64,000 nt of DNA from Acetobacteraceae bacterium (GTDB lineage: Bacteria; Pseudomonadota; Alphaproteobacteria; Acetobacterales; Acetobacteraceae). Shown in pieces: positions 6,233-64,000 of this stretch (within the stretch, counting starts at the first letter, position 1; each line of letters starts with the position of its first letter). The stretch spans positions 2,529 through 66,528 of the forward strand of contig JAIEOP010000050.1 in NCBI GenBank assembly GCA_019750465.1, written 5' to 3'. The notes beneath the pieces are model-generated. The model saw only the letters and a program-made list of their open reading frames with translations. It did not search any database and was not told the DNA's origin. A program made the position numbers and the translations under genes.

Positions 6233-6251
6233 ATCCGGAAGACAGCGCAGC

Positions 6252-9110
6252 ATGGCCCGCCCGAAGAAGCTCAAGCCCGACGCACCCGCCACCGAGGTGG
6301 AGACGCTCGTCCACCCCGCCGATATCGCGCGCAAGAACATCCCAACCGCGGAGACCGCGGCGCTGATGGCGGAGGAGGAAGCGCGGGCTGAACCCAAACT
6401 CTATCCCCGCAACCCGGACCTGGACCCGCAACTGGTCTGGCGTGGGAAGGACGAGCAGGACAGCGCGCCGCTGGGGGTCGAGACGGTCCCCATCTACATC
6501 CAGGAGAAGCTGTATCCGGAGGCGCTGATCCGCGATCTGCAACGCGTGTCGGCGAAGGAAGCGGCACCGCAGGCCGATCTGTTCGGCAGCTTCGACCGCA
6601 TCACGGATGAGGCGGCGCGGCTCGAGTTCTACCAGCACGCCGAGAACTGGTCGAACCGGATGATCCTGGGCGACTCCCTGCTGGTGATGAACAGCCTGGC
6701 GGAGAAGGAAGGCCTTCGAGGCCAGGTGCAGATGATTTTCCTCGATCCACCCTACGGAATCAAATTCAGCAGTAACTGGCAGCCGAGCACGCGCACGCGC
6801 GATGTGAAGGAGGGCAAGGCCGAAGGGCTGTCGCGCGAGCCAGAGCAGATCAAGGCCTTCCGGGACACCTGGAAGGATGGCATCCACAGCTATCTGGCAT
6901 ATCTCCGAGATCGGCTGGCTGTAGCGCGGGAGCTATTGGCCGAAAGCGGTAGCATCTTCGTTCAGATCGGCGACGAGAATGTCCATGTTGTGCGTAGCCT
7001 TCTCGACGAAGTTTTCGGGCCAGCCAACTTCATCGGACAGATCGCTTATCAAAAGACCACCGGTGCGACCTCTGATTTTCTCGGCGGCACGCTCGACTAC
7101 CTGCTGTGGTTTGGAAAGAACCGTCAGCAAGCGAAATTTCGCGCCATGTACAATCTGAAAACAGCCGGCGAAGAGGGTGCGACCAAGTATCGCAAGTTGA
7201 TCCATCTCGATGGAGCGCGGAGACCTGCCGCAGAGGGCGAAGTCTCGGGTGCGACGGCGCTCCCAGATGGCTGGAAGTTGTACACCGACGACAACCTCAC
7301 CAGCCAAAGCGCCGGCCGCGAAAAAGGAGAAGGCGCAGCGTCCTGGTTTGAAGTAAAACATGACGGCCGAAGCTTTCTTCCGACGATGCAATCCCGTTGG
7401 AAAACCAACGAAGCTGGGATGGGCCGTCTCCAGGCCGCTGGGAGGCTTGAGCCTGCGCGGAACATACTGCGCTACGTGCGGAAGCTGGATGATTTTGCCG
7501 CAGTCGAGATCAACGATCTCTGGCGGGATATCGGCGGCATCCAAAGCCGAAGCGATCCGAAGGTGTACGTGGTCCAGACGTCCACTACGGCAATTGAGCG
7601 CTGCATGCTCATGACCACCGATCCTGGTGACCTCGTCTTCGATCCGACCTGCGGTTCCGGCACCACCGCCTTCGTCGCCGAGCAATGGGGCCGCCGCTGG
7701 ATCACCACCGACACCTCCCGCGTCGCCCTGGCGCTGGCACGCACGCGCCTCATGGCCGGGCGCTTCCCCGCCTACCTGCTGCGCGACAGCCGTGAGGGCG
7801 CAGCGAAGGAGGGCGAGATCACAGGCCGTCCACCCGAGGAAGGCCCCTTCCGCCACGACATCCGCCAGGGCCTCGTGCTGGAGCGTGTGCCGCACGTCAC
7901 GCTGAAATCCATCGCCAACAACGCTGAGATCGATGTCATCGACGCCAATTGGGCGCCGAAGATCGAAGCCGCGCTCGCTACCCTCAACGCCGCTCTCGGG
8001 ACAAAGCATGCGGAGTGGCAGGTTCCCCGCAACCTGCCCGGAGACGCGAAACCGGTGGTGCAGGAGGCGCATGCGGCATTCTGGGCCACCCGCCGCGCTC
8101 GGCAGGCGGAGATGGACGCCTCCATCGCCCGGAACGCCGATACGGAATTCCTGCATGACCGGCCCTACACGAAGAAGAACGCGGTCCGCGTCACCGGCCC
8201 CTTCACGGTGGAGAGCCTCTCGCCCCACCGCGTCCTGCCCGCGGATGAGGAAGACCAGGCCGTGATGGAGGCGCTGGCCCAGGAAGCGGGCGAGCCCGTG
8301 CCCGAGCGCCGCCCGCTCCGCACCCGGCCGGACGCTGGCGATGACTTCGTGACCGCCGTGCTGGACAACCTGCAGAAGGCCGGCGTGCAGAACATGAAGA
8401 AGGATGAGCGCCTGACCTTCGCCACGCTGCGCCCCTGGCCTGGCGGCAGCCGCGTCTCGGCCGAGGGCGAGTACGAAGAAGCCGGCGTGAAGAAGCGTGC
8501 CGCCATCGTCATCGGTCCCGAATACGGCACGGTCGGCCCCGACCTGGTGCGCGAGGCCGCGCGCGAATGCCGCGACTGGGCTGACAGCATGGTGGTCTGC
8601 GGCTTCGCCTTCGACCCGCAGGTGGGCGACAGCACGATGAACCTCGGCCGCCTGGTGGTGCTGAAGGCGCGCATGAGCCAGGAGCTGCGCGCCGCCGAAG
8701 CCTACAAGGCCGGCGGGGGCAACCTGTTCGTGGTGTTTGGCGAGCCGGATATCGCGCTCGACCAGGCCGACGGTGAATGCGTCGTGCGCCTGAAGGGCGT
8801 GGACATCTTCGACCCCACCACGGGTGAGGTCCGTTCCTCCGGCCGCGTCGAGGATGATGTTGCCTGCTGGTTTGTCGACACCGACTATGACGGCGACAGC
8901 TTTTTCGTCCGCCATGCCTACTTCCTCGGCGGCAAGGACCCCTTCGAGAAGCTCAAGACCGCGCTGAAGGCCGAAGTGGACGAGGACGCCTGGGCGAGCC
9001 TCTACCGCACCGAAAGCCGCCCCTTCGCGAAGCCGAAATCAGGCCGGATCGCCGTGAAGGTGATCAACCACTATGGGGACGAGGCGATGCGGGTGTTTCG
9101 CGTGCCGTGA
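6252..9110 (+). CDS. mod: beta-class N6-adenine/N4-cytosine DNA methyltransferase, Type III Mod-like, 952 aa
   Basis: The catalytic motif IV 'IFLDPPYGIKF' precedes the AdoMet motif I 'VFDPTCGSGTTAFVAEQ' (beta-class order). About 450 aa lie C-terminal to motif I, a tail much longer than in textbook Mod subunits. It sits 19 nt downstream of res. Confidence 0.85.
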   Translation: MARPKKLKPDAPATEVETLVHPADIARKNIPTAETAALMAEEEARAEPKLYPRNPDLDPQLVWRGKDEQDSAPLGVETVPIYIQEKLYPEALIRDLQRVSAKEAAPQADLFGSFDRITDEAARLEFYQHAENWSNRMILGDSLLVMNSLAEKEGLRGQVQMIFLDPPYGIKFSSNWQPSTRTRDVKEGKAEGLSREPEQIKAFRDTWKDGIHSYLAYLRDRLAVARELLAESGSIFVQIGDENVHVVRSLLDEVFGPANFIGQIAYQKTTGATSDFLGGTLDYLLWFGKNRQQAKFRAMYNLKTAGEEGATKYRKLIHLDGARRPAAEGEVSGATALPDGWKLYTDDNLTSQSAGREKGEGAASWFEVKHDGRSFLPTMQSRWKTNEAGMGRLQAAGRLEPARNILRYVRKLDDFAAVEINDLWRDIGGIQSRSDPKVYVVQTSTTAIERCMLMTTDPGDLVFDPTCGSGTTAFVAEQWGRRWITTDTSRVALALARTRLMAGRFPAYLLRDSREGAAKEGEITGRPPEEGPFRHDIRQGLVLERVPHVTLKSIANNAEIDVIDANWAPKIEAALATLNAALGTKHAEWQVPRNLPGDAKPVVQEAHAAFWATRRARQAEMDASIARNADTEFLHDRPYTKKNAVRVTGPFTVESLSPHRVLPADEEDQAVMEALAQEAGEPVPERRPLRTRPDAGDDFVTAVLDNLQKAGVQNMKKDERLTFATLRPWPGGSRVSAEGEYEEAGVKKRAAIVIGPEYGTVGPDLVREAARECRDWADSMVVCGFAFDPQVGDSTMNLGRLVVLKARMSQELRAAEAYKAGGGNLFVVFGEPDIALDQADGECVVRLKGVDIFDPTTGEVRSSGRVEDDVACWFVDTDYDGDSFFVRHAYFLGGKDPFEKLKTALKAEVDEDAWASLYRTESRPFAKPKSGRIAVKVINHYGDEAMRVFRVP

Positions 9111-10790
9111 GGATCACCTATGCCCGGATCCGCGGATGGCGTTCCATAAAGGATATCCAGCTTCGACCTGGCCGGGTAACGGCCTTGGTCGGCTCGAACA
9201 ACGCTGGCAAGACGAGCATCCTGAGCGCGCTCAACTTCCTCCTTGGCGACCGCTACCCCCAGGCGCAGGCTCTGGAGGACAAAGACTTCTTTGGAAAGCG
9301 GCGGGACGAGGGCGTGGAAATCGCTGTCGAGTTCGAGCCCGGCCATGACCTCCGATCGTTAACGTTCAACTCTTCAGCGACCTACCCGGCCCGGGACCTC
9401 ACGGCGCGCTGGCGGAACGGTGGGAGTTCCGGGATCACCAACGATAGCCGACGCGCGGCGGGTCTAGTCTACCTCGACGCAGCGCGCAGTTTCGACGGCC
9501 AATTCGGCGCTTCGCGTTGGAGCCTATTCGGGCAGATCGTTCGGCAGCTTAACGAGAACTTCCGCCAGACCGTGCCCGAGCAGACACTGGTCGAGATTCA
9601 GGGTCACCTGGAGCGAGCACAGGAGCTACTCAAGACAGATCTCTACAAGGCGTTCGTTGCTGCCGTCTCGGCCGCCTTCCAGGAACAGGTTAGGCTCGCG
9701 GGACACGCGGTTGAGTTCGATTTCCGCACTTTCGACCCGCTCAACTTCTACCGGGCAATGTACCCGACGCTGGTGGAGGACGGAGAGGGCAAGAACCCCT
9801 CAGAGGCCGGCTCAGGCATGCGGAACCTGATCGTCATGGCGCTCTTCCGAGCCTACGCCAAGACGTTCAGGAGCGACTCCATCATCGCCATCGAGGAGCC
9901 CGAACTTTACCTCCACCCCCATGGCCAGCGCAGCTTGGCGGCGCTGTTCACGGAGCTCGCCGCAGCCGGTTCTCAGAATCTTCTATTCGACCCATAGCGC
10001 ATCCTTCGTGTGGGCGGAGCGCTTCGACGAGATCGTCCTCGTGGAGCGGAGGCCAGACGACGACGGCGATGTTGCGACGCAGGTGCGGTGGCTGTCCGAG
10101 GACGATATGGTCGCGCGCAGGCGATCGCTTCATCCCGGCGTAGCACTCACAGGCGCCAGCGTCCGAGACCGGCTGGCTTTCGCCTGCGGCGTCGAGCAGG
10201 CCGAGGCGTTCTTCTCCAAGGCAGTGGTGTTAGTCGAGGGCGACACCGAGGCGGCCGCCCTTCCTGTCTTCGGTGAAGCACTCGGTTTTCCCCTCGACGC
10301 GCATGGCGTGTCCGTCGTCGAGGCGTCGGGCAAGTCCGGCCTGGACACGCTGCACGATCTCTACGGGGGCTTCGGCACCCCGATCTTCATCATCTTCGAC
10401 AACGACGAGGGGACTCGCGACCGCGGTTTGCTCGACGCAAACCGCACGCTGACGCGCCTCCTTGGGCTACTCGAAACAGAGATGCCAGCGGCCGCTGTTG
10501 GCGAGCGCTACGCAATACTGGCCCCCGACTTCGAGAAGACGCTGCGGCGCGAGCTAGACGCGTTCGAAGCGGGCCTCTACGACCGGCTAGAGGCCGAAGC
10601 TCGGCGAGCCTACGGCGGTGCGCGAAAGCCATCTATCGCACGGCATCTGGCCAAGCGGCTTGTCGAAGAGGGCCGCATCGCTCCAACGATCGTGCGAATT
10701 ATTTCGGCAGTCGCGAAAATGTCGGGCGTAGAGGCGAAAGAACCTAATCGCGCCGTGGCGCCCGAAATTTCAGATGAGATACCATTCTAA
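9107..10790 (+). pseudogene. OLD-family ATP-dependent nuclease (ABC-type ATPase plus Toprim), split by a 1-nt frameshift near 9977
   Basis: ORF 9107..9997 carries Walker A 'GSNNAGKTSIL' and the Walker B/D-loop region 'IIAIEEPELYLHPHGQRSL'. ORF 9921..10790, in the +1 frame, continues with 'IFYSTHSASFV' and Toprim motifs 'VVLVEGDTEAAALP' and 'IFIIFDNDEG'. Removing base 9977 joins '...AAAGSQ' to 'IFYSTHS...' into one protein of about 560 aa. The GTG start at 9107 overlaps the mod stop (GTGA). Confidence 0.75.
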
Positions 10791-10950
10791 GCTTTGGTCT
10801 CATCGATTCCGGGGCGCCAATTCCTCGGCAATGATGATGTCGGGGGTCACAGGAGATTCTCCCTTCTCCGGTACCCTTTGCCGAGCGGTAGATTTGCTGA
10901 AAAGCCCCAAGCTTGGTGCCGACCATACGGTGGAAAAACAAAAGGATACA

Positions 10951-10981
10951 GCTTGGGGGTCAAATCACGCCACCCCCAAGC
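10951..10981. other. perfect 10-bp stem hairpin GCTTGGGGGT-(11 nt)-ACCCCCAAGC in the island junction
   Basis: Read directly. On the minus strand a TTTTGTTTTT tract lies 8 nt after the stem, which is non-canonical spacing for a terminator. A third CCCCAAGCTT copy is nearby, within the palindrome CCAAGCTTGG around 10906-10918. Confidence 0.5.
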
Positions 10982-11332
10982 TTCGGAGACTTTAGGGCGC
11001 TCGGAGAGCGATTTCCGGGCTCGTTGCGTTCTCCACCCCTCAAGCCGTGACGGAAAATCCCCAGGAAACCTGCGGTTCAGGGCTCAACCCGGGAAAGGAA
11101 GTGTGAGGTTGGAAGACCGACTGGAGCAGCGGTGGGAACCGGGGTCCAACCTTCTCTGGGCCGCAAGCCGGCGCGGCTGTTTTGGTGCTCGGCGAAGCCT
11201 CGTAGGCGAAAGCGCAGGTCTGTTCCCCGGTAGTGAAGAGCTGGTATCAATCCGGGCATCTCGACGCCTTTTCGGTACAAAGCGAAGCCGCGGGGAGATC
11301 GGTTGGAGGCGCCGTACGCCAGGGAGGGCTTC

Positions 11333-32620: not shown

Positions 32621-33568
32621 TCACCAATGCCAGTGCACCGGTGCCACACCGGCCGCCGGCGCGCGGAAGGTCGCGAGGCTGTCGCCCGCCAGACTTCCGA
32701 GATAGGCCGTGCGGCGGTCGTCGCCGCCGAAGGCGATGCTGCTGAGGTTGCGCAGGATGCGGCTGCGGGCCTCGTGGATCATCGGGCGGGTCAGCCTCCG
32801 GGCGTGCAGCGCCGTCTCCAGCGCGTCCAGGTGCGCGGGGTCGCTGTCCTCGATCACCACCTGGCGGGTGCCGTCGGGCGCGATGCGGGTCAGCCGGTTG
32901 CTGGCGACGCTGACGACCCAGACGGCGCCGGCCTCGTCCAGGGCGAGGCCGTCGGGGTAGTCGCCGTGCCCGAACGTGGCGATCGTCGTGCGGTTCGAGA
33001 GACTGCCGTCTGGCGCCATGTCGAAGCGCGTCAGGCGGCGGCCGAAGGTCTCGTTGACATGCAGGTGGCCGCGCGCCTCGTCGGGCCAGCACTCGTTCGT
33101 CCAGACCAGGTCCGTGGCGACGACACGGACGCCGTGCTCATCCTTCAGCGCGACGAACCCGTCCGCGACGTCGGTGCGGTACTGGTCGTCGCCCTTGCGC
33201 ACGGTGCTCACGCAGATCCAAAGCCGCCCCCGGCTGTCGGTCCGGACGAAGTTGACGCTGCCGAGCCGGCGACCGGCGATCTCCGTCACCTCCGGTTCGA
33301 TGCGGCCGTCCGGATGCAGGCGCCACACGCCGCCATCATCCGACAGGTTCGCGATGGCGAAGCTCCCGTCCCGCAGCAGGGCGATGCCGTTCGGCACCAG
33401 GCTGCTGCCGCCCATCAGCTCCTGCGTGCCATCGGGCGCGATCCGGGTGACGCCGCCGCGTCTGTCCGAGACGTAGAGGTCGCCGCGGCGCGTCGCCAGG
33501 ACGCATTCGGGGCGGTCCAGGTCGTGGCCGACGAAGCCGATCGCGTCGAGGCCGGTCTGCGTGCCCAC
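32621..33568 (-). CDS. SMP-30/gluconolactonase/LRE-family protein (candidate lactonase)
   Basis: 315 aa with repeated beta-propeller-type segments ('PECVLATRRGDLYVSD', 'PNGIALLRDGSFAIAN', 'YPDGLALDEAGAVWV'). Confidence 0.7.
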   Translation of the reverse strand: MGTQTGLDAIGFVGHDLDRPECVLATRRGDLYVSDRRGGVTRIAPDGTQELMGGSSLVPNGIALLRDGSFAIANLSDDGGVWRLHPDGRIEPEVTEIAGRRLGSVNFVRTDSRGRLWICVSTVRKGDDQYRTDVADGFVALKDEHGVRVVATDLVWTNECWPDEARGHLHVNETFGRRLTRFDMAPDGSLSNRTTIATFGHGDYPDGLALDEAGAVWVVSVASNRLTRIAPDGTRQVVIEDSDPAHLDALETALHARRLTRPMIHEARSRILRNLSSIAFGGDDRRTAYLGSLAGDSLATFRAPAAGVAPVHWHW

Positions 33569-54908: not shown

Positions 54909-55471
54909 CCTTGCCTCCCTCGTAAACGCCGGCGCGGAATGGCCCGGCCGGCATTGCAACCATAGCCGCCGATGGGCTGAAATGGTGAGCCGTGGCGCTG
55001 GGCTGCACGAACCCGTGTCCGCTTCGTTGTGCCTCAGTGCATCTGCGGCGGCCCCCGAGCGTCGAGCTGCGCGGATGGCAGGAGGAAGAATGCGGCCTAC
55101 GTCGCCGCCGAGCTGCCGCTTCGTAATCCGGTGCCTCTCCTCCTCCCGCTTCGACTTGGTGGGAAGCCGCGGCCACCGGCGGCGGGCCTGCCCGTTCGGC
55201 GCGGCTTCGATACGCGGGTCCTGGACGCCGCGGTGCGCTGGCAGCTCAGCGGCGAGATGCCCCTTGCCTGCGAGGCGACCGGGCCGAGTGCCAGGACCGG
55301 CGCGCAGATGAGGATCTCGTCCTTACCGTGCTTGGCGTTGCCGTCATCTGCATGCGCCAGGTCAGCCGCCATGGCGGACTTGGTGGAGAATGTTGGAACG
55401 TACTGCGCCGACACTCCCTCCAGGATTCGGGTTTGGGAACTCGTTCGAGCGACGCGCGGATGCGCGCGCAA

Positions 55472-56311
55472 TCAGGTCACGCGGTAGATCGTGAAGGAGC
55501 CGCGGGCGCCCTCGCGGTTGGGTCCGACCTGGCGGATCCGCTCCAGCACCTTCACCTCGATGCCCTGGCGCTTTTTCAGGCCCGCGAAGAAGCCGCGGAC
55601 CGTGTGCTGCTGCCAGCCTGTCGCCTCGCAGATCTGGGCGATGGTGGCGCCCTCCTCGCGGCGGAGCAGGGCGAGCACCTGCTCCTGCTTCGTGCCCTCG
55701 CGCGGCTTGCGCGGCGCGCCCGGCTCCCGCGTCGCGCGCGCCGGCTTCGCCAGCATCTGGCGCAGGGCGTCCATTGCGTCCGTCAGGTCGTAGCGCTGGT
55801 TCGCCTCGTCGTCCCAGGCGTCGAGCACCCGCTGCGCGGTATCGCGTAGGGTGGCGTGCAGCGCGGGCGTGGGCGCGGTCTGGGCCGCTTCCGGCGCCGG
55901 GACGTCCTCACCCTGCGGCGTCGGCTCCTCCGCGCCCGTGCGCGCCGTGTCGGCCACCGTCGCGGCGGTCTCCGCGGCGGCGCGGCGGTCGGCGTTGCGG
56001 CGGGCGATGGCCTCGGCGCTCTGTTCGTCTTCCTCACGCGCGTCGCCCGCGTTCGGGTCGATGCCGATGGCGCGGAGCCCCTCGTCGGTGATGCGCGCCA
56101 CGATCCAGGTCCCGTCCTCGTCCTGGCGCCAGCCGAGCCCGACATGCTCATGCGGCGCGTTGATCTCGGTGAGCAAGTTGTTCTTGATCAGGCTGCGAAA
56201 CACCGCGTTACGGGCCGCGGCGGGCAGGGTCTTCGGCGCACGGGCGAGGCCCATCTCGTGCTGCGCGGCCGCGCTCAGGATCGCGCGCTGGGTGTCGGAA
56301 AGCTTGGTCAT
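55472..56311 (-). CDS. DUF3489-domain protein
   Basis: The C-terminal 'TKQEQVLALLRREEGATIAQICEATGWQQHTVRGFFAGLKKRQGIEV' is the DUF3489 signature as I know it. The middle of the protein is low-complexity and acidic, rich in Ala and Pro. Confidence 0.75.
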   Translation of the reverse strand: MTKLSDTQRAILSAAAQHEMGLARAPKTLPAAARNAVFRSLIKNNLLTEINAPHEHVGLGWRQDEDGTWIVARITDEGLRAIGIDPNAGDAREEDEQSAEAIARRNADRRAAAETAATVADTARTGAEEPTPQGEDVPAPEAAQTAPTPALHATLRDTAQRVLDAWDDEANQRYDLTDAMDALRQMLAKPARATREPGAPRKPREGTKQEQVLALLRREEGATIAQICEATGWQQHTVRGFFAGLKKRQGIEVKVLERIRQVGPNREGARGSFTIYRVT

Positions 56312-56408
56312 TGCAGCAGTCTCCGGTGTCGGGCGCCGACCATCGGCCCCTACTGCCGGGAGCCCCGCCGGCTGTGCCGGTCGGGGCCGCGGCGGGGTGT
56401 GCCGCGCG

Positions 56409-56645
56409 CTACTCCGCGAATTCGCCGCGCTTGAAGTAGGAATCCGTCACGCTCGCGAGCCGGCTGTTCCAGTGTTCGAGCGTCGCGGCGTTGCCCCAGA
56501 GGACGTCCTCGGGATCCGCCTCGAAATGGTCCGCGCTCATCTGCTGCAGTTCGGCGACCATCGCGTCGAAGCGGGCCTTCTGCTTCAGGAAGGCTTCGAG
56601 GCTCTTCTGCTGGTTGCGCGAGGCGCGGGTGTCGAAATCGGTCAT
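56409..56645 (-). CDS. hypothetical protein (78 aa)
   Basis: ATG at 56645 ('MTDFDTRASRNQQKSLEAFLKQKARFDAMVAELQQM'). The composition is helical and the codon GC3 is good. I recognise no motif. Confidence 0.45.
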   Translation of the reverse strand: MTDFDTRASRNQQKSLEAFLKQKARFDAMVAELQQMSADHFEADPEDVLWGNAATLEHWNSRLASVTDSYFKRGEFAE

Positions 56646-56827
56646 TGTCGTGTCCGTCGTGGTGCAGGGCATCCCCTGCGTGTGACGGACCATTCGCGCT
56701 GTGCCGCGCACGAGCCAAGCAAGATGGAGCGTCACGGGATTGCTATTATTCGGCGGTCTGGATCACAAGACGATCGACGACGCCGCGCGCAGCGGCGAGG
56801 CTCAGCGGCATCGTGCATGTTCCGGTA

Positions 56828-56866
56828 GACTTCCCACGGCTGGGAAGTCGATGCGGCCCCCGCATC
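56828..56866 (-). terminator. two tandem GC hairpins at the 3' end of the HTH gene (no U-tract)
   Basis: GACTTCCCA-cggc-TGGGAAGTC (56828-56849) and GATGCGG-ccc-CCGCATC (56850-56866). The second overlaps the stop codon. Confidence 0.3.
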
Positions 56867-57431
56867 ACGCGCGCGCGTCTGGCCCGATCGAAGCATGCGG
56901 ATCCAGCCGATCAGCGACGTCCAGCAGTAGCGCGTTCATCTGCTCCTGCAGGATGGTCTGCACGAGATGCGGATCGCGGCCGATCTCGGCGGCGATCAGC
57001 CCCGACACGCGCGCCGGCCAGTTCAGCACCGCATCGCGCATGCCGGCGGCGCATTCATCGATACGATGGTTGGCGGCGGCGACGTCCATCAGGCGGCCCT
57101 TCGTTTCATCGATCGCCAGGCGTTGCGCCTCGACGCCGAGGGCAAGTCGCGCCAGCGTCAGCCGGCCCAGCGGCGTGTCATCACCTGGCATCGCCAGGGG
57201 CGACCGGCCCGGCACGGCCGATGCGGTCAGATCGCGGCGAACACGCTCAACATCCCAGGACCCATCCGTCTCGCGGCGGATGCGCCCAACCCGCTCGGCC
57301 TTCTGGATCGCGGTGTGGGACACCCCTAGCCGGCGGGCGAGGTCGCGGGCGGAAGTAATGCGTTCTGGCAACGGCACCTCCCGCCACGGGCGGTCGTGGC
57401 AACGTGCTGGCAACTGGTTCGCACCTGGCAA
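56865..57431 (-). CDS. HTH DNA-binding protein, possibly Nu1-type small-terminase-like
   Basis: The N-terminal HTH is 'ITSARDLARRLGVSHTAIQKAERVGRI'. The helical C-terminal half ('EAQRLAIDETKGRLMDVAAANHRIDECAAGMRDAVLNWPARV') resembles the layout of Nu1-like terminase small subunits. A more likely start is TTG at 57371, preceded by GGGAGG. Confidence 0.55.
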   Translation of the reverse strand: MPGANQLPARCHDRPWREVPLPERITSARDLARRLGVSHTAIQKAERVGRIRRETDGSWDVERVRRDLTASAVPGRSPLAMPGDDTPLGRLTLARLALGVEAQRLAIDETKGRLMDVAAANHRIDECAAGMRDAVLNWPARVSGLIAAEIGRDPHLVQTILQEQMNALLLDVADRLDPHASIGPDARA

Positions 57432-57488
57432 CCCATCAGATCCGAATCATCTGACTGGCTTGCCCGACGATCTTGGCAACCTGGCAAC
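57366..57488 (-). repeat. six copies of GTTGCCA (TGGCAAC on the plus strand)
   Basis: Copies at 57366, 57397, 57408, 57426, 57474 and 57482 (7 nt each). They span the 5' end and upstream region of the HTH gene. Confidence 0.7.
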
Positions 57489-57633
57489 CTCGATTTTTAC
57501 CAGACGCTAGCGATGTTGCGCGCTTCCGCCCCCCGCATACGATATCGCCCGGGAGGAACCATGGCCTCGACTTCGAGAGAGGCGCGACCTCTCGACGCGC
57601 CACGAATCTACACGCCGCAGATTCCGCGGCGCA

Positions 57634-57675
57634 ATGCACTCATGCGCAGGATCGCTGCCTTTCGCACGAGTGCAT
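57634..57675 (-). terminator. 13-bp inverted repeat (12/13 match) downstream of the 184-aa gene, no U-tract
   Basis: ATGCACTCATGCG (57634-57646) pairs with CGCACGAGTGCAT (57663-57675). It lies 15 nt past the stop at 57690. Confidence 0.3.
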
Positions 57676-57689
57676 CGCGCCGTTCTTCC

Positions 57690-58244
57690 TCAGGCCGCTA
57701 TGCGAGGCCGCGGCACCAGCCCGTAGTGCGTCGCCAGCACGGCAAGCCCAGCGGTGAACATGCCCTGCGCCTGGGCCGGCGCGATCGGGCGTCCCTGCCA
57801 GCCCTGCGCCATGGCCCACTCCCGGAGCGAGCACTCGAGCCCGAGCACGTGCCACACCGCCGAACCGCCCGGACTTCCTGGCCCGCCCAGCGCCTCAAGA
57901 GCGGCTGCGACCCTATCCCGTGCCGCAACCTGGCGCTCGGTCATTGTGTCGCCGCCGCCCTTCGGCATGCGGAGCAGTTGCGTCGTCCGCATGCCATCAA
58001 GCGCCGCGGATCGAAACTGCGTCCGGAACATGCAGCCGGCCTCGTGCATCTGCGAGGTGATGGTGCCGTTGGTCAGCATGGCGCCGAGCGTGTCGACCGC
58101 GCGGCGATGCTGAACGGGCGTTCCCGTCTCCGGGTCGGTCTCGCGCACTGCCTCGCCAACACCACCGTGCTGCAGACGCCAGGGCGAGGGCTTCGACAGG
58201 TCCTCGCGCTGAGTCGTTCTCGTGCGCTTGCGCTTACCGGCCAT
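57690..58244 (-). CDS. hypothetical protein (184 aa)
   Basis: ATG at 58244 ('MAGKRKRTRTTQRED'). The layout resembles small phage or mobile-element regulatory proteins, but I recognise no firm motif. Confidence 0.5.
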   Translation of the reverse strand: MAGKRKRTRTTQREDLSKPSPWRLQHGGVGEAVRETDPETGTPVQHRRAVDTLGAMLTNGTITSQMHEAGCMFRTQFRSAALDGMRTTQLLRMPKGGGDTMTERQVAARDRVAAALEALGGPGSPGGSAVWHVLGLECSLREWAMAQGWQGRPIAPAQAQGMFTAGLAVLATHYGLVPRPRIAA

Positions 58245-58497
58245 TGCTGGGCCCTCCCTGTCGTCGCCCCCACCGGCGTACCGCCTCGTTGATGACGGCC
58301 TGGCGCAGTACCGCGTCCCCGATCTCATCAAGGACGAGCGTCGCCACGCCCTGCTCGTGCCAAGCACGACGCCGCATCGCATCCAGCTCCGGGCCTGTGG
58401 TGGGGCTCGGTCCGCGATCGAGGCAACCGCGCGGCGGTCTGGGACCGCCGGGCAGCGCCATGCGCGACGCGGAGCTGCAGTCGCGCACCACCATCAC
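58234..58497 (-). CDS. hypothetical small protein (start uncertain)
   Basis: The ORF overlaps the stop and start of its neighbours (4 nt and 11 nt). Only the C-terminal half ('ELDAMRRRAWHEQGVATLVLDEIGDAVLRQAVINEAVRRWG') looks protein-like. Confidence 0.35.
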   Translation of the reverse strand: MMVVRDCSSASRMALPGGPRPPRGCLDRGPSPTTGPELDAMRRRAWHEQGVATLVLDEIGDAVLRQAVINEAVRRWGRRQGGPSNGR

Positions 58498-58994
58498 GAC
58501 GCCATCCTGCGTGCGGCGGCGGCCTTAAGCAGGCTCTCCGGCAAGGCCGGAGCGCCACCCGACGGCCAACGTGACTGCCGCTGCGGCTGCCACGGCCCGG
58601 GCGTGATGCCGAAGTGCTGCAGCACCAGCTCCAGGCGATTGGTCAGTGCGACAGCGGCATGCGCCCGCAGGAAGGGCATGACGTGCTGTGTGCGGAAGGG
58701 CAGCCAGTCCGCCGCCTCCGGGATCCAGACACCTTCGACGATGTCGCCTCCGGTGCAGAACTCAGCGTAGTGCCCGCCTTCGTCACGGATGACCCAGTAG
58801 AAGACCTCTGCGCCGTCGCACAGCGCGCGCTCCATACCTTCGCTGCCGCGGCTAGAGCGCAGGACCTTCGAGAGCGATTCGTGCCAGTCCAGCCCATCGG
58901 CAAGCCCGAGCTGATTGGCGCGGACGTACCAGTCGGGTTCCGGCAGTTCCACGATTTCGCCGTGCCGGTAGGTGGTGAGGGTGTCGGTGCTCAT
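58494..58994 (-). CDS. hypothetical protein (166 aa)
   Basis: ATG at 58994. The composition is balanced ('FYWVIRDEGGHYAEFCTGGDIVEGVWIPEAADWLPF'). No recognised motif. Confidence 0.5.
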   Translation of the reverse strand: MSTDTLTTYRHGEIVELPEPDWYVRANQLGLADGLDWHESLSKVLRSSRGSEGMERALCDGAEVFYWVIRDEGGHYAEFCTGGDIVEGVWIPEAADWLPFRTQHVMPFLRAHAAVALTNRLELVLQHFGITPGPWQPQRQSRWPSGGAPALPESLLKAAAARRMAS

Positions 58995-59092
58995 GATGCG
59001 CGTCCCTGATCGTGTTCTGGAGAAAGCCGGCGGTCACAGCAGCATGGTGGCGCACGGGCGCGATGCGGCACCTCGGGCGCATGCGAGCCAGC

Positions 59093-59404
59093 GGGTCCGG
59101 GTGGGTCCAGGTCTGGGTCCGGGTTGGGTCCGGGTCCGCGGCGCCGAAAAACGGCGGAAATCCGCCATGGGTCCGGGTGGTCCGGGTGGGGCCGGGTTTC
59201 CCCCCTACTCTTCCGTACACCCCGTATGCGCGTGTCATGCGCGATGTGCGTGACATGCGTGATGCACAAACCGGCTGCTACGAAAGAGAACACAACAGAC
59301 CCGGACCACCCGGACCCACCCGGACCCACCAAGGAATTCCGCGGCTTTCCGGCGACTGGCATACCCGGACCCTTACCCGGACCCACCGTCGCAGACCCGG
59401 ACCC
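59093..59404. repeat. iteron field: 7x GGGTCCGGGT-type repeats facing 6x ACCCGGACCC-type repeats around a central region of about 100 bp
   Basis: Left-arm copies start at 59093, 59103 (GGGTCCAGGT), 59115, 59126, 59169, 59179 (9 nt) and 59188 (GGGGCCGGGT). Right-arm copies start at 59299 (9 nt), 59308, 59318, 59363, 59375 and 59395. The centre holds CATGCGCGATG (59236) and CATGCGTGATG (59254). Confidence 0.85.
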
Positions 59405-59421
59405 ACTGGCCATGGCCGCGC

Positions 59422-61833
59422 TCATCGCGATGCCTCCTGGCTCGGCTGCCGGCGATATCGGCGTTCGCGTTTGGCGCCAGTGCCATGGCCGCCCTTGCGT
59501 GCGCGCGTTTGCTTGAAGCCCATGCTGATCAGGCTGCGGACGACGCGATTCTGATCGGCCTGCGTCCAGCGCCCCTTTTCGATGGCGAGCGCGTGCTGCA
59601 GCACCTCGGCCACCGAGACGTCCTGCAATGGCGAGGGCCGCGGGCGTCGGTAGGCGTGGCTCTCGCCGAGCCCGTTCTGCATCCACTCGGTGTCGTTCTC
59701 GAGATAGCTCTCGATCAGATCGTCCCAGGCATCGCCCTGATAGCGCTCGGCCTGCTCCTCCGCGGCCAGGCCATCGAGCGCCTGCGTCTCCAGCCACCAG
59801 GGCTCGTTGCCGCGAAACCGATCCCGTGCCTCGGCCCAGAGCTGATCCCGATCCTGCTCCAGCGCCGGCAAATCAATGCTGCCGCACACCACCGGCCAGA
59901 ACCGCCGACCGCCAGTCGGGTCTTTGAGATACCCGCCCTCCGGATTCACGCTCCCGGCAAAGATGCATTGCCGCGGCAGATCCACCAGCCGCTTGCCATA
60001 GGGCGGCCGAAAGCGATCCTGCGTGCGCGACATGAATGCCTTGATGGTGCTGACCTCGGCACGGCCCATCGTGTCGAGCTCGGCGATCTCGATGATCCAG
60101 ACGCCGCGTGTTTCCATCGCCGCGTCCTTGCTGCTGAGGTCAGAGAGGCGGTCGGCAAACCAGGGCTTGGCGATCGCCATCAGGGCGGAGGATTTCCGGA
60201 TGCCCTGCGGTCCTTCGAGGATCAGCGCACAATCCGCCTTGCAGCCGGGGATGTAGATCCGCGCGACGGCCGACATCATCCAGCGCGGCCCGATGGCGCG
60301 GTGATAGGGCGTGTCCTCCGCGCCGAGGTAGCGCACCAACCAGGCATCGAGGCGCGGCGTGCCGTCCCAGGCCAGTGCGTCCAAGTGGTCGCGCACCGGA
60401 TGAAACAGCCGGTCACGCGCCACGACCTCCACCGCCTGGCCGGCGATGGACATCGGCACCATGATCTCCTGGTGCTGCAGCCAATTCGCCACCAGCGCGT
60501 CATCGCGGTCGGCCCATGGCGTGTCAGCCCAACTGGCTGAACCGCTGATCCAGGGCGGTGGCTTGCGGGCGACCGTCGTGGTGGCGAAGGCATCGTGCCA
60601 GAGGACGCCGTCCCATTCCGGCGCGCCGCGCAGGGCGGTGATAGCGTTCGCCAGCACGGGCCGGGGCTCGCCGTCCTCGTTGAGCAGCAGATCCTTGCGC
60701 CATTCGTTGGAGAAGGCAGCTGCGGGTCGCGTTGCTGCGATCAGCATCCGCACCGCGTCCGCGCCGTCCGATTGCAGGACGTCGTTGAAGTCCATCGCCG
60801 GTGGCGGCTCGGCAACGCTCACGTCGTGCCCACGGGCTCGCAGCACGGTGACAGCCTGGCGAAGCTGCTGGTCGGCCTTGCTGTTCGGCTCGTCGCCGTC
60901 GCGCGCGATGATGACCGGCGCGCCGTCGGGCAGGGGCACACGGGCGATGTTGCTGATGCCGAGGCAGGCCCAGCATTCCTGGCCGGTGGCCTGCCAGACG
61001 GAGAGCGCTGTCTCGACGCCTTCGCAGAGCACCACCGGCGCGATGCCGGGAAAGCGCACGGCGGCGACATCGGCCCAGCCGTCGTGCGCCTTGTTGGTGC
61101 GCTTCTGGACCTTGAGCGGTGCCTTGCGCCCGTCCTCGGTGAGATAGATCAGTTGCAGGCCGTGAACCTGCCCCTCGGCGTCCATCGCCAGCGCGACCAG
61201 CGCGCCATAGTGGTTGAACGCGTTCGGCAAGAAGCGGATGGATGGCGGGAGCGGCGTGGCCGTGATGCCGCGACGGTGCAGGTAGGTCTCGACACGCGTG
61301 CCGGCCGCGTCCTCGCAGCCGGCGACGATCTCGGCGACCTTCGCGGCTCGCTTCGCGTCCTCCGCCGCTTTCTTCGTGGCGGACGATGAGGGGCGGTCCT
61401 GCCATGGTGGTGGTCCGGGCGCGTCGTCCGCGGTGGCGGCTGGCTCCGGCGAGGCCGGGTCGATCGATGGCAGCGTCACGTCGCCAATGTCAGATGGCGA
61501 CACCGGTGGTGGCGGTGATGGCTCAGCCGTCTTACGGCGTGGTCCCGCCGGCATCCCGAGCCATTGGCGGGACCAGTCAAGTGCTGCGCCGTTGGTGAGC
61601 CCGCGCCGATGCCGCAGCAGCTCCAGGCCGGCGCCGCCACTGCCATGCTCGTGGTCGAACCAGCGCCCGGCGTCGTCGCCCTCGAGCTCGACTGCGATGC
61701 TGCCATGCGTGCCGAAGCGCAGCTGCGTCGGCGTGGACAGCTCGCGGTTCGGCTCGCCCAGCAACTCGCGCGCGAGATCGCCGATGCGTGCGTTGAGTGC
61801 CTGCACCACGTCCTTTGCGCTCGCGCCGCTCAT
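59422..61833 (-). CDS. primase-helicase (N-terminal primase-like region, Toprim, VirE/D5-type P-loop NTPase)
   Basis: The Toprim region is 'VVLCEGVETALSVWQATG...VIIARDGDEPNSKADQ'. The VirE-type Walker A is 'LILEGPQGIRKSSA', followed by 'WIIEIAELD' and 'FRPPYGKRLVDLPRQCIFAGSVN'. The likely start is ATG at 61833 ('MSGASAKDVVQAL'). Confidence 0.85.
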   Translation of the reverse strand: MSGASAKDVVQALNARIGDLARELLGEPNRELSTPTQLRFGTHGSIAVELEGDDAGRWFDHEHGSGGAGLELLRHRRGLTNGAALDWSRQWLGMPAGPRRKTAEPSPPPPVSPSDIGDVTLPSIDPASPEPAATADDAPGPPPWQDRPSSSATKKAAEDAKRAAKVAEIVAGCEDAAGTRVETYLHRRGITATPLPPSIRFLPNAFNHYGALVALAMDAEGQVHGLQLIYLTEDGRKAPLKVQKRTNKAHDGWADVAAVRFPGIAPVVLCEGVETALSVWQATGQECWACLGISNIARVPLPDGAPVIIARDGDEPNSKADQQLRQAVTVLRARGHDVSVAEPPPAMDFNDVLQSDGADAVRMLIAATRPAAAFSNEWRKDLLLNEDGEPRPVLANAITALRGAPEWDGVLWHDAFATTTVARKPPPWISGSASWADTPWADRDDALVANWLQHQEIMVPMSIAGQAVEVVARDRLFHPVRDHLDALAWDGTPRLDAWLVRYLGAEDTPYHRAIGPRWMMSAVARIYIPGCKADCALILEGPQGIRKSSALMAIAKPWFADRLSDLSSKDAAMETRGVWIIEIAELDTMGRAEVSTIKAFMSRTQDRFRPPYGKRLVDLPRQCIFAGSVNPEGGYLKDPTGGRRFWPVVCGSIDLPALEQDRDQLWAEARDRFRGNEPWWLETQALDGLAAEEQAERYQGDAWDDLIESYLENDTEWMQNGLGESHAYRRPRPSPLQDVSVAEVLQHALAIEKGRWTQADQNRVVRSLISMGFKQTRARKGGHGTGAKRERRYRRQPSQEASR

Positions 61834-61992
61834 CGGGCGCCTCGAGCGAGTGGTGGGACTGGGTCGAGAATCGGCATCGGGCCTCCGCGGCGAAGACCCG
61901 AAAGAAGCCACACGACATGTGCCTGGTCCGCGTTGGAGCCGGTCCGGCCCCTAGCCGGGCGGAGGGTTCAACCCTTCAGCCGCGCTGCGACG

Positions 61993-62682
61993 CTATCCCC
62001 AACCGCGCTTCGCACCGCCGCGCTGCGAGGCGGGCAGTCGGATCAGCGTCGCCATCGCGTCGGCAAGGTTCTGCGAGACCGGCTCGCCGTCCACCGTCTG
62101 CTCGCGGAACCAGTCAGCCAGCAGCTCCTTCTTGCCTTGGCCGCGCGCGCTGATCCGGTTCTCTGCGATCGCCCGATCCAGGAGGTCCATGTACGGCGTG
62201 CGATACGGCTCCCCCGTTTCCGGATCCGCCGCGGGAGCTGGCTGCAGCGCCTCGACGACCGGCCAGATCGCCAGCACCATGAAGCGCGGCACGCGGATGT
62301 CGATGAACTGGCCGTCGGCCATGGTCAGCACGCCGCCCTGCACATCAGCGCGGCCGGCACGCCAGTGTTCGGGGGTGATGGTACTGTGGTGACCGGAGTG
62401 CAGGTCCCAGCCGTCCAGGGCATGCGTCCATGGGCGGGACTGCGTCGAGGACAGCCGTCCCTGCGCATGCAGATCTCCGTCCCGCAGCGCCACCTGGACC
62501 TCGCGGGCTGCCTGGCTGGGCGCGCCGCCCCGCGGGTTCTCGGTTTGCCGCCAAGGCGGGAGGGCGGGATCCGGCTGCGACGCGATGTCGCCGCGGGCGA
62601 CAGCCCGTTCGATCTGGGTTGCAACATGATCAATGGCTTGGCTGAGGCGCCACTGCGCCCGATCCAACTTTTCGATCAGCAT
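61993..62682 (-). CDS. hypothetical protein (229 aa)
   Basis: ORF track 61993..62682. The composition is protein-like in the C-terminal half ('PYRTPYMDLLDRAIAENRISARGQGKKELLADWFREQ'). No recognised motif. Confidence 0.45.
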   Translation of the reverse strand: MLIEKLDRAQWRLSQAIDHVATQIERAVARGDIASQPDPALPPWRQTENPRGGAPSQAAREVQVALRDGDLHAQGRLSSTQSRPWTHALDGWDLHSGHHSTITPEHWRAGRADVQGGVLTMADGQFIDIRVPRFMVLAIWPVVEALQPAPAADPETGEPYRTPYMDLLDRAIAENRISARGQGKKELLADWFREQTVDGEPVSQNLADAMATLIRLPASQRGGAKRGWG

Positions 62683-62792: not shown

Positions 62793-63050
62793 ATGGCGCC
62801 TTCGTGGGCTCGAGTGCCGCCCATGCCAGCCACCGCCGCCGCCCCAGGCCGTCCCCCGCCGAACCACCTCCCACCGCACCTCCGCGAGGTCTGCGCCATC
62901 CTGGCCGCCGGCCTGGTGCGGCTGCGCAGCCGGGTTGCCGAGGATGAAGCGCGCGATGCCGAGCTAGCTCGGGGGGCGGGAGAGGTTCGCCTACACTCCA
63001 CCGCCCACCAGCGCCTGCATGCGAACCCCAACAGGAAGGGACTCGCATGA
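62793..63050 (+). CDS. small conserved ORF, paralogue of 682..894
   Basis: 'LPPHLREVCAILAAGLVRLRSR...RLHANPNRKGLA' aligns with the copy at 682..894. ATGA overlap with the DUF2924 start. The true start is uncertain. Confidence 0.4.
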   Translation: MAPSWARVPPMPATAAAPGRPPPNHLPPHLREVCAILAAGLVRLRSRVAEDEARDAELARGAGEVRLHSTAHQRLHANPNRKGLA

Positions 63051-63544
63051 CCAGACGATCCACCGCCGCGCCCGCGCCGGCACCAACCATCCCGAAGATC
63101 CCGCCCACTCAGGTGCTGCCGCGGCTCGCCGCGCTGCAGACCGCGCCCACCGCCGACCTGAAGGAGCAATGGCGGGAGCTGTTCGGTAAGGAGCCTCCGC
63201 CCTGGAACCGCGCCTACATCCAGAGCCGACTGGCGTACCGGATCCAGGAACTCGCCTATGGCGGGCTGAAGCCCGAGACCGTCGATCGGCTGGTGGCGCT
63301 GGGCGAGCAGTTGGACGGCGGCAACGTGGTGCTGCGTCGCATCCGCGCCGATAGCCGGCCGCTCGCCGGCACGCGACTGATCCGGGAATGGCAGGGCGTG
63401 CAGCACGTGGTCACGGTGCGGGTCAATGACTTCGAATTCGAGGGGCGGCCCTACCAGTCCCTGTCCGCCATCGCTCGCCACATCACCGGCACCCGCTGGA
63501 ATGGCTGGACGTTCTTCGGACTGCGCGCGCGAGGTGACGCATGA
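63047..63544 (+). CDS. DUF2924-family protein (second copy)
   Basis: 165 aa. The C-terminal 124 aa are identical to the copy at 891..1388, despite about 35 silent nucleotide differences by hand count. Confidence 0.85.
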   Translation: MTRRSTAAPAPAPTIPKIPPTQVLPRLAALQTAPTADLKEQWRELFGKEPPPWNRAYIQSRLAYRIQELAYGGLKPETVDRLVALGEQLDGGNVVLRRIRADSRPLAGTRLIREWQGVQHVVTVRVNDFEFEGRPYQSLSAIARHITGTRWNGWTFFGLRARGDA

Positions 63545-64000
63545 CCCGCCGCGCTCGCATCGAGCCGGCCATGCCGGCGACCACGAAGAAGCTCCGCTGC
63601 GCCGTCTACACGCGGAAGTCGACGGATGAGGGGCTGGAGAAGGAATTCAACACCCTCGACGCGCAGCGCGATGCTTGTGAGGCGTATATTACGAGCCAGC
63701 GCGCCGAGGGATGGATGCTGGTGCGCGACCGCTACGACGATGGCGGCTTCTCGGGCGGCACGCTGGAGCGGCCGGCGCTGCAACGCCTGCTGCGCGACAT
63801 CCAGGCCGACCTGATTGACGTGATTGTGGTCTACAAGATCGACAGGCTCAGCCGCTCGCTGATGGATTTCGCCAAGCTGGTGGAGACGTTCGAGGCGCAC
63901 CGGGTGACTTTCGTCTCGGTGACGCAGAGCTTCAATACCACGACCAGCATGGGGCGGCTGACGCTGAACATCCTGCTGAGCTTCGCGCAGTTCGAGCGAG
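63541..64000 (+). CDS. large serine recombinase (second copy), 5' part only, continues beyond the window
   Basis: My own translation from ATG 63541 gives 'MTRRARIEPAMPATTKKLRCAVYTRKSTDEGLEKEF...VIVVYKIDRLSRSLMDFAKLVETFEAHRVTFVSVTQ'. It is nearly identical to 1385..2737, with a few substitutions. Confidence 0.85.
   Translation, partial: MTRRARIEPAMPATTKKLRCAVYTRKSTDEGLEKEFNTLDAQRDACEAYITSQRAEGWMLVRDRYDDGGFSGGTLERPALQRLLRDIQADLIDVIVVYKIDRLSRSLMDFAKLVETFEAHRVTFVSVTQSFNTTTSMGRLTLNILLSFAQFER

Follow-up and report, generated by a model that had tools for sequence, protein, structure and literature searches.

The 64,000-nucleotide stretch of Acetobacteraceae DNA analysed here (contig JAIEOP010000050.1; called the window throughout) ends, at its right-hand side, in ~8.5 kb of an integrative element that carries replication, packaging and integration genes. 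We think it probable that this region is part of a cos-type phage satellite, 10-11 kb or larger, that comes from the temperate cos siphophages of an Acetobacteraceae group. From its phage ancestry the element has kept an integration module, a primase-helicase with an iteron origin, a GafA-like activator, a cos site, a small terminase of Nu1 type and two small conserved genes, and it has lost the large terminase, portal, capsid, tail and lysis genes. The best reading of this composition is derivation by reduction from temperate phages that could now serve as helpers. Helper dependence, excision, packaging and the role of each gene of unknown function are matters that we infer from sequence.

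Central to this reading is a minus-strand motif at 57501-57561, GG.TCCT.CC.GG...GTATGCGGGG.GC....GCGCG...CGCTAGCG, which is kept in ~30 related loci whose proteins have diverged to ~30% identity. One exact variant of its core is present in 84 IMG/VR contigs, and in L021 and L028 (L numbers denote related loci) it lies just upstream of their only small terminase gene (TerS). The record of the cos phage RcKemmy was consulted after a weak tblastn match of the window's TerS-like protein to the annotated RcKemmy TerS, and the window core, GTATGCG^GGGGGCGGAAG, coincides with the deposited ends of that phage. The record starts GGGGGCGGAAGCGCGTTAAGTCCCTAGCG and ends GGTTCTTCCGCGCCCCCACGCTATGCG, which is the motif split between GTATGCG and GGGGGCGGAAG; read further, it begins GGGGGCGGAAGCGCG...CTAGCG and finishes ...GGTTCTTCC...CGCTATGCG, i.e. 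...CTATGCG. Phages of the RcC cluster, including RcKemmy, possess defined termini that carry 11-base 5' overhangs (PMC8601537), and the 11 nt identical to those of RcKemmy lie in the window at 57523-57533, the predicted cohesive end. We infer that the deposited ends of RcKemmy are its physical ends, because of the method of that paper and because gene 1 begins at base 110 and not at base 1. The record of RcOceanus starts at its first gene, not within the motif, which is there uninterrupted.

In the alignment of related loci the sequence that flanks each predicted nick site (..TGCG^ on one strand, GCGCG^ on the other) is conserved and the 11-nt centre differs from element to element, as expected of a cosN. 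Over a 38-bp stretch at this site the window and L010 are 100% identical, against ~79% for the coding DNA beside it. As read from these comparisons, the motif at 57501-57561 is a cos site, a predicted packaging signal compatible with a helper phage. It may alternatively be a late promoter; a sigma-70 scan gave no promoter in the whole region. A reading of the motif as an RNA was dropped, because its split at the phage genome ends accounts for it; Rfam gave no relevant match, and the variable positions, by eye, showed no helix co-variation.

Next to this motif is the gene of a helix-turn-helix (HTH) protein, here called TerS-A, which the initial annotation had put forward as a Nu1-type small-terminase candidate while calling the assignment weak. 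The profile search that it proposed strengthens the assignment. Nearly all of TerS-A is covered by a match to PHROG 57 (terminase small subunit; E 2.3e-17), and its profile aligns with that of RcKemmy TerS gp5 at a probability of 98.9% (hhalign, E 1.3e-17). It is 61% identical, over its full length, to the TerS adjoining the large terminase gene (TerL) in L037, and homologues stand directly before a GpA-family TerL in L020, L021, L022, L026, L028, L034 and L037. The protein has an N-terminal winged HTH and a helical C-terminal region, translation (168 aa) probably starts at TTG 57371, which the ribosome-binding site GGGAGG precedes, and its ratio of nonsynonymous to synonymous substitution rates (dN/dS) is 0.13-0.24. 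Judged by these matches, the HTH protein is a true small-terminase homologue. As to the further suggestion that it may redirect packaging, a TerS homologue does stand at cos, but TerS-A is also found in full phages and is not specific to satellites, since L034 and L037 carry TerS-A plus a second TerS adjoining TerL. A tandem 'satellite + helper' origin of these two-TerS phages was considered and rejected, because differing replication modules precede a single DUF6456-cos-...-DUF3489-TerS-TerL block.

Between the cos core and the start codon of TerS-A lie six of the eight copies of GTTGCCA in the whole window, and RcC phages have similar repeats after their cos. Across loci the type of repeat tracks the predicted recognition helix of TerS-A: the helix SHTAIQKAE occurs with GTTGCCA, and NHTSILKAE pairs with GGGCACCA/GGCACC(A). 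The layout of cos, repeats and TerS-A resembles the cosN-cosB-Nu1 arrangement of lambda.

How these features are distributed was followed in more than 100 loci, gathered by scanning genomes with the primase, by scanning IMG/VR and by looking up homologues of the TerS-like protein and of p229. Most of them fall in the group of Roseomonas, Falsiroseomonas, Roseococcus and Elioraea. Full phages of the family share one order, in which the recombinase and replication genes are followed by DUF6456, the cos motif, ~3.3 kb of ParB-N methyltransferases, p78 and DUF3489, and then by TerS, TerL (GpA ATPase plus nuclease), a lambda-family portal and protease/capsid genes. The compact order runs from a small HTH gene through the serine recombinase, DUF2924, p229 or p126, the primase-helicase and small genes to DUF6456, the motif, TerS, p78 and DUF3489, after which come non-phage genes. 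Seven compact copies, each from a different genome and all without TerL and portal, are the window element, L008 (Roseomonas alba HJA6), L039, L049, L055, L056 (Falsiroseomonas sp. E2-1-a4) and L057 (Falsiroseomonas bella). Five of the seven (window, L008, L049, L056 and L057) have no structural gene of any kind. What comes directly after DUF3489 is host genes in four of these (window, L008, L049 and L057); in L056 it is a toxin-complex cluster whose status is unclear. The other two copies first have one extra gene, a major-capsid homologue of the Phage_capsid_4 family right after DUF3489 (L039 11817-13163; L055 11928-13250; 440-448 aa), which hints at another packaging route in some members. 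In a classification of distinct loci, TerS directly follows the cos motif in 7/7 compact copies, and was scored as doing so in only three of 30 loci with TerL (L034, L037 and the Rhodobacterales-type L026).

One compact copy is demonstrably a discrete mobile unit. A segment of 10,680 bp is 99.8% identical in L049, on a 191-kb metagenome contig, and L051, from Rhodospirillales bacterium SCN 65-16, and the flanks of the two are unrelated. L051 is a 13-kb contig of a metagenome-assembled genome (MAG), and its junctions could be assembly joins at a repeat, which would still mark the ends of that repeat. At the recombinase-side end a tRNA-Gly(GCC) adjoins in L051 and a tRNA-3'-like sequence in L049; L009 adjoins a tRNA-Arg. 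For all ten genes, comparison of the window with L055 and L008 gives dN/dS of 0.13-0.49 at dS of 0.35-1.4, with no stop codons. By this measure the compact form is under purifying selection. Its architecture, seen in seven copies, is recurrent and not the product of random decay. The full phages of the family have the same cos core, a GpA TerL and a lambda-family portal, and are thus possible helpers; one Roseococcus MAG holds both a full-type and a related second copy (L017 and L020).

A separate observation concerns L049 (10662-18029) and L008 (15086-22475), which occupy the same chromosomal site, beside a truncated SulP gene and an Mrp antiporter. They are 96% identical over p78, DUF3489 and the host flank and 71-76% identical over the rest, which suggests mosaic exchange between elements at one site. 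The SulP gene beside them (L008 16816-17658; L049 12370-13212) is a C-terminal fragment comprising the end of the transporter domain and STAS; the part that is missing faces away from the element, and this insertion is therefore not what truncated the gene.

The element also appears equipped to replicate. Directly downstream of the primase-helicase gene the iteron GGGTCCGGGT (at most one mismatch) occurs in 13 copies, seven on one strand and then six on the other, around a spacer of ~100 bp. The whole window has 18 matches where 6.7 are expected, and 0/100 shuffles reach 18. The palindromic region between primase and p166 is conserved in all relatives, and the stretch 59093-59404 is a candidate replication origin. 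The primase-helicase (dN/dS 0.17) matches VapE (1.3e-77), DUF7146 (6.3e-16) and Toprim_3 (9.7e-15) in Pfam and the DNA primase/helicase families of PHROG, down to E 2.8e-102.

The gene directly upstream of cos, in the window as in nearly all relatives, encodes a DUF6456 protein, whose match covers 111/136 profile positions (29.3 bits against a gathering cut-off of 26.3). DUF6456 is the annotation of gafA, whose product is a direct activator of the gene transfer agent of Rhodobacter capsulatus (PMC9638019, PMC9765227) and binds a promoter 75-125 bp upstream of the TerS gene of that agent (PMC9638019). From this family membership and from the position of its gene directly upstream of cos, the protein of the element is a probable late-gene transcription activator; no promoter or binding site for it was identified in the region. 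Among ~100 related loci (e.g. L065, L129, L140), dozens of ordinary temperate phages likewise have a DUF6456 gene immediately upstream of cos, which suggests a phage origin for GafA. The remaining small genes have few clues to offer. The protein p87 (dN/dS 0.25-0.28) has no Pfam match, and p166 no family match in Pfam, PHROG or PADLOC. For p229 (dN/dS 0.18-0.33) there was no match in Pfam, PHROG or PADLOC and none by Foldseek with an AlphaFold2 model of mean predicted local distance difference test (pLDDT) score 77. PADLOC gave no defence model for p229, p166 or DUF3489.

The integration module begins with a DUF2924 protein, part of which matches the RAMA DNA-binding domain (weakly, in the homologue of L143); DUF2924 also precedes a recombinase in Wolbachia phage WO (PMC11342252). 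Full-length relatives of the recombinase have 442-467 aa, with Resolvase and Recombinase domains and a weak Zn_ribbon_recom match, and are followed by a gene of 125-139 aa with a weak ParB/SopB-HTH match. Past this small HTH gene lies host DNA in L049. Elsewhere there is cargo: type I restriction-modification genes in L008, L020, L055 and L143, a methyltransferase in L057, an ImmA-like peptidase with an HTH protein in L056, the candidate defence gene PDC-M54A in L010 and DUF499 / DUF3780 / DUF1156 in L141. Virion genes lie on the recombinase side in no relative. Given the cargo of these relatives and the cargo island of a second copy within the window, the element probably continues for a few kb, possibly to ~10 kb, past position 64000. 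Exact-protein look-ups of DUF2924 and DUF3489 gave no match, and that of p229 only Logan contigs of less than 2 kb.

The second copy is a DUF2924 / serine recombinase (450 aa) / small-gene module at 708-3114, with 88.8% DNA identity to 62864-63998. It is followed by a type III restriction-modification pair (ResIII 3155-6232; MTase_III 6252-9110, 1061 bits) and by an OLD/GajA/AriA-like ATPase resembling Gabija GajA. The latter is split between overlapping open reading frames (ORFs) at 9107-9997 (ATPase part) and 9921-10790 (Toprim part), and is probably frameshifted or a pseudogene. With the stretch that follows the module (3155-11161), this second island reaches its end at ~11104-11161 (of the type TGGAGCAGCGGTGG..), in sequence 88% identical to the end junction of L049. 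Its left part is off the window, and an upstream ORF of 125 aa (272-649) has no homologue in the related loci examined. A different rearrangement is seen in L009 (6553-9867), L014 and L028, where the whole block from p229 through DUF2924 and the recombinase to the small gene is turned round with respect to the primase, and p229 adjoins host DNA (in L009, the tRNA-Arg). An inversion with one break at the end junction and the other between p229 and the primase would fit; inverted repeats were not found at the break points of these three loci.

The coordinates of the element are collected in the following table.

Features of the element, in window coordinates
Feature	Position	Strand	Evidence or remark
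Junction region	54960-55471		Non-coding; separates the element's last gene from the dodecin gene of the host
DUF3489 protein, 279 aa, C-terminal HTH-like domain	55472-56311	-	PF11994 E 5.6e-24; phrog_10315 E 3.7e-37
p78, 78-aa protein	56409-56645	-	phrog_14596 E 1.3e-23; ORF reaches 56735
Small terminase homologue TerS-A, 168 aa from TTG 57371	56865-57371 (ORF to 57431)	-	phrog_57, hhalign
cosB-like array, six GTTGCCA repeats	57366-57488	-	cos core to TerS-A start codon inclusive
cos core (cosN-like)	57501-57561	-	GGTTCCTCCCGGGCGATATCGTATGCG^GGGGGCGGAAG^CGCGCAACATCGCTAGCG
GafA-like DUF6456 protein	57690-58247	-	PF20057, 29.3 bits against cut-off 26.3
p87, 87 aa, conserved, overlaps both neighbour genes	58234-58497	-	Homologous small ORFs in L033, L041, L055
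p166, 166 aa, first gene after the origin	58494-58994	-	Conserved in relatives
Replication origin candidate	59093-59404		Two opposed iteron arrays, 7 + 6
Primase-helicase (DUF7146 + Toprim_3 + VapE/VirE)	59422-61911	-	Probable start M at 61833
p229, 229 aa, first gene of the leftward operon	61993-62682	-	416 homologues, none named
DUF2924 (RAMA-like DNA-binding) protein, first gene of the integration module	63047-63544	+	PF11149 E 1.9e-48
Large serine recombinase, first 153 aa (N-terminal) before the window ends	63541-64000	+	PF00239 E 9.5e-35

Much of what the initial annotation had described in this region stands. The minus-strand run from 55472 to 62682 is real, although the ORF map and the Pfam, PHROG and NCBIfam scans list eight genes where nine had been claimed. 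The three coupled small genes are the overlapping DUF6456, p87 and p166 genes, the iteron field is borne out by its two opposed arrays, the Toprim and VirE assignments of the primase-helicase agree with its Pfam matches, and the divergent serine-recombinase module is found as DUF2924 and a Resolvase-domain recombinase on the plus strand. The absence of structural, large-terminase, relaxase and type IV secretion genes was likewise confirmed: the scans gave no TerL, portal, capsid, tail, lysis, relaxase or type IV secretion gene in 55-64 kb. What had been missed is the cos site with its repeats (57366-57561), the GafA-like small gene and the second recombinase module at 708-3114. Five of the genes of the element match PHROG phage families. 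DUF3489 (dN/dS 0.39-0.49) is the last gene of the compact element and, by synteny, stands just before TerS-TerL in full phages; relatives of p78 are called at 75-86 aa in L049 and L055-L057.

To the left of the element the window holds host metabolism (dodecin, flavin monooxygenase, thiolase and acyl-CoA dehydrogenase), which begins ~510 bp past DUF3489, at the position of TerS-TerL-portal in full relatives. The DUF3489-side attachment junction must fall in 54960-55471, the interval from the host dodecin gene to the last gene of the element, which has no ORF with a coding signature in third-position GC content. DNA homology to relatives ends at 55476-55485, and at 55394-55431 there remain 38 bp of the leader found before the capsid gene in L039 and L055. 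Within the interval there was no tRNA, nothing that matches the end of L049 and, by tblastn, no trace of a capsid gene, and it has no repeat in common with the second module copy. ARAGORN places a tRNA-Arg(GCG) at 32733-32825, distant from the element; at 93 nt it is unusually long for a tRNA-Arg.

Is the element packaged by a helper, or is it what remains of a prophage? Several observations weigh against a satellite. No Pfam small-terminase family matches TerS-A, and the structural comparison with terminases proposed in the initial annotation did not bear the assignment out: with an AlphaFold2 model of pLDDT 76.5, Foldseek gave no significant match (best E 0.43 in PDB and 0.054 in BFVD), only MerR/excisionase-like HTH pieces and a weak full-length match to a Loktanella phage TerS; a hidden Markov model search of PDB gave nothing relevant. 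No capsid-size or helper-interference gene was recognised by Pfam, PHROG, PADLOC or the p229 structure search, and no helper prophage is visible in the 64-kb window. The right end of the element lies past 64000, so that the absence of virion genes there rests on the relatives. TerS-A, cos and the GafA-like gene are ancestral phage features, and with TerS-A present in L034 and L037 simple inheritance could explain their presence. Further points of this kind come from four drinking-water metagenomes (X1-X4), which hold the element at 82-95% of sampled words. In all four the unique segments of the element lie close to host depth (in X1, 54-65x, with ~88x over parts of the primase gene, and the host at 53-58x); a contig runs unbroken from host DNA into DUF3489, so that the element is seen in its integrated form; and the assembled contigs of the four metagenomes have no circular junction, empty site or pile-up of ends at cos. 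No terminal overlap was found in the related contigs examined. In X1-X4 the depth over DUF3489-p78 (55609-56811) and over the recombinase module (62827-64000) is ~3-4x that of the host and of the remaining element, which implies that this drinking-water community also holds several close relatives, be they elements or phages, and the contigs break there; these assemblies are fragmented and do not extend past 64000.

The main rival to a satellite is accordingly a cryptic, defective prophage lineage that has lost its late genes by deletion and with them its packaging, although its serine recombinase still moves it and it may replicate. Its cos and TerS would then be simply inherited, or serve some other purpose, e.g. 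in regulation. Full phages of the family also have all genes of the element in the same order, TerS-A among them in L034 and L037, and neither the integrated state at host depth nor the lack of recognisable helper-interference or capsid-redirection genes would surprise in such a lineage. It explains less well why seven diverged copies should have reached nearly the same end point, all with TerS at cos where most full phages have none, why the flanks of the cos nick sites should be conserved to the extent seen between the window and L010, why the repeats should co-vary with the recognition helix of TerS-A, and why TerS-A itself should be so constrained. The 99.8%-identical copy in two contexts points to recent spread, and since conjugation genes are lacking, some vehicle is needed. 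We consider this explanation unlikely, though a serious one. It is far harder to argue that the region is the early arm, for integration and replication, of a complete prophage that has its structural genes past the right end of the window. The window does end inside the recombinase gene, with 0 bp readable beyond it, and rearranged relatives exist, with the recombinase module inverted in L009, L014 and L028 and the DUF3489 block in L041, L131 and L143. But packaging and head genes follow DUF3489 in every full relative, where the window has host metabolism; beyond the recombinase in L049, L051, L055, L056, L057 and L008 there are the small HTH gene and host genes or defence cargo, never virion genes; and L049 and L051 bound the unit at 10.68 kb. 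This makes such a prophage very improbable. We give still less credence to a plasmid-like or mobilisable integrative element, passed on by conjugation or transformation, that has no connection with phage particles. A primase-helicase with an iteron origin beside a site-specific recombinase would suit it, and VapE/Toprim proteins are common on small plasmids, but there is no relaxase, oriT-type protein or type IV secretion gene (the only relaxase match, TraI_TIGR, scores 79.7 bits against a cut-off of 929.85 and covers primase residues 32-121, a segment that is not a relaxase domain), and the PHROG phage families, the cos site with its TerS and the whole-block synteny with phages all speak for a phage origin.

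A satellite thus remains our preferred reading, and it is instructive to set the element beside known systems. The general features of satellites are present: an own integrase, a discrete unit (bounded at 10,680 bp by L049/L051), a primase with an origin, no virion genes and a helper-compatible cos; the head, tail and lysis modules of a complete temperate prophage are absent within the window. The initial annotation had proposed a possible satellite with the logic of P4 and the phage-inducible chromosomal islands (PICIs). The cos site, TerS, the seven compact copies and one mobile unit favour the satellite proposal, in which packaging, excision and helper dependence are the inferred parts. The likeness to P4 and PICIs extends to the integrase, primase, iteron origin and packaging module, and not to their core genes or to a tyrosine integrase. 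Like the element, the cos-type PICIs (cos Staphylococcus aureus pathogenicity islands of SaPIbov5 type and E. coli EcCICFT073 with Rpp; compare PMC5052747, PMC6092414) are integrated islands of ~10-15 kb with an integrase, a primase/replicase followed by an iteron origin, no virion genes and a helper-like cos for the helper terminase. They differ in their tyrosine integrases and Stl/AlpA-type control, where the element has a serine recombinase with DUF2924. The cos islands so far described have no TerS, or a TerS-binding redirector (Rpp), in contrast to the Nu1-like TerS, private repeats and GafA-like activator of the element. No protein family is common to the two beyond generic primase and Toprim domains, and Pfam and PHROG recognised no AlpA or CI-like repressor and no tyrosine integrase in the element. 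The shared layout, with primase and iteron origin and with terS in a packaging module, is therefore analogous. Of the capsid-forming PICI genes (capsid, portal, protease and head-tail connector) none is in the window, and L039 and L055 have the single Phage_capsid_4 gene.

Satellite P4 of phage P2 is likewise an integrative element of ~11 kb with a primase-helicase and a cos cut by the helper terminase, but its integrase is of the tyrosine type, it encodes no terminase subunit, and it is restricted to Enterobacterales; no homologue of Psu, Sid, Delta, Ash/Epsilon or AlpA is among the element proteins (Pfam, PHROG, NCBIfam). P4 relatives have a cargo hotspot that holds defence systems. The initial annotation had regarded a serine recombinase as unusual for satellites. 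That view must be given up, since PICI-like elements (PLEs) and some virion-encapsidated integrative mobile elements (VEIMEs), the latter in part alphaproteobacterial, integrate by a large serine recombinase (among the marine VEIMEs, VEIME module 3; PMC9618062). Some VEIMEs also have small-terminase homologues most similar to those of co-occurring phages, and some have restriction-modification genes (PMC9618062). The large serine recombinase, with Resolvase and Recombinase domains in the element's family, is what the element has in common with these satellites. Their hosts and gene content differ, PLE relies on ICP1, a lytic phage, and no arrangement of cos, TerS and a GafA-like gene is described for them. 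The PLE-type initiator RepA_N has no Pfam match in the element, which has a Toprim/VapE primase-helicase instead.

Phages, too, resemble the element. The RcC-cluster phages RcKemmy and RcOceanus and the IMG/VR phages L034, L037, L042, L129 and L140 have the same cos core with similar repeats behind it and a TerS homologue, and encode a GpA-family TerL and a lambda-family portal. Acetobacteraceae phages share DUF6456, p78 and DUF3489 with the element, and L020 and L037 the serine-recombinase module as well. These phages are complete, at 33-49 kb, with TerL, portal, protease/capsid and tails, whereas the window element stops after DUF3489. Of the lambda-like cos packaging machinery the element has the TerS with its N-terminal winged HTH, and the GpA TerL is found only in full-length relatives. 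GafA of the R. capsulatus gene transfer agent also has a DUF6456 domain and binds upstream of a TerS gene, and the gene of the element lies upstream of cos/TerS; GafA is a host regulator of 382 aa, in contrast to the ~185-aa protein encoded by a mobile element.

How might such a satellite live? It would stay integrated until induction of a related helper phage, or infection of the cell by one. The serine recombinase would then excise it, the primase-helicase would replicate it from the iteron origin, and the GafA-like protein would switch on the cos-proximal operon. TerS-A would bind its private GTTGCCA repeats (cosB) beside the family-wide cosN and recruit the GpA-type large terminase of the helper. 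The predicted nicks fall at GTATCGTATGCG^, after GTATGCG, with an 11-nt stagger, and the element DNA would enter helper capsids. About four units of 10.7 kb would fill a head of 40-45 kb; as this equals the size of the phages, packaging of multimers into normal heads is plausible.

Literature searches turned up neither this family nor comparable elements with DUF3489/DUF2924; satellites with serine recombinases and satellites of Alphaproteobacteria are already known. Whether the compact copies constitute a new family of Acetobacteraceae cos satellites is, in our judgement, evenly balanced. Such a family would combine integration by DUF2924 and a large serine recombinase (at tRNA or tRNA-like sites in some relatives), an own Nu1-like TerS and private cosB that capture the GpA TerL of a helper, a GafA-like switch and a slot for defence cargo. 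Its packaging model, with a shared cosN and a private TerS/cosB pair, has a predicted cleavage point and binding repeats that are defined to the nucleotide. If it is true, the co-variation of TerS helix and repeat would define packaging-specificity groups that separate satellites from helpers.

Finally, the well-studied satellites are mostly those of Firmicutes, Enterobacterales and Vibrio, and this family, which is well populated, would extend the phenomenon to soil and freshwater Alphaproteobacteria, a class in which the known particle-mediated route of transfer is that of gene transfer agents and their regulator GafA. The slot beside the recombinase, in relatives and in the second module of the window, holds restriction-modification, OLD/Gabija-like and candidate defence genes, so that the family may also be a vehicle for the exchange of defence genes.

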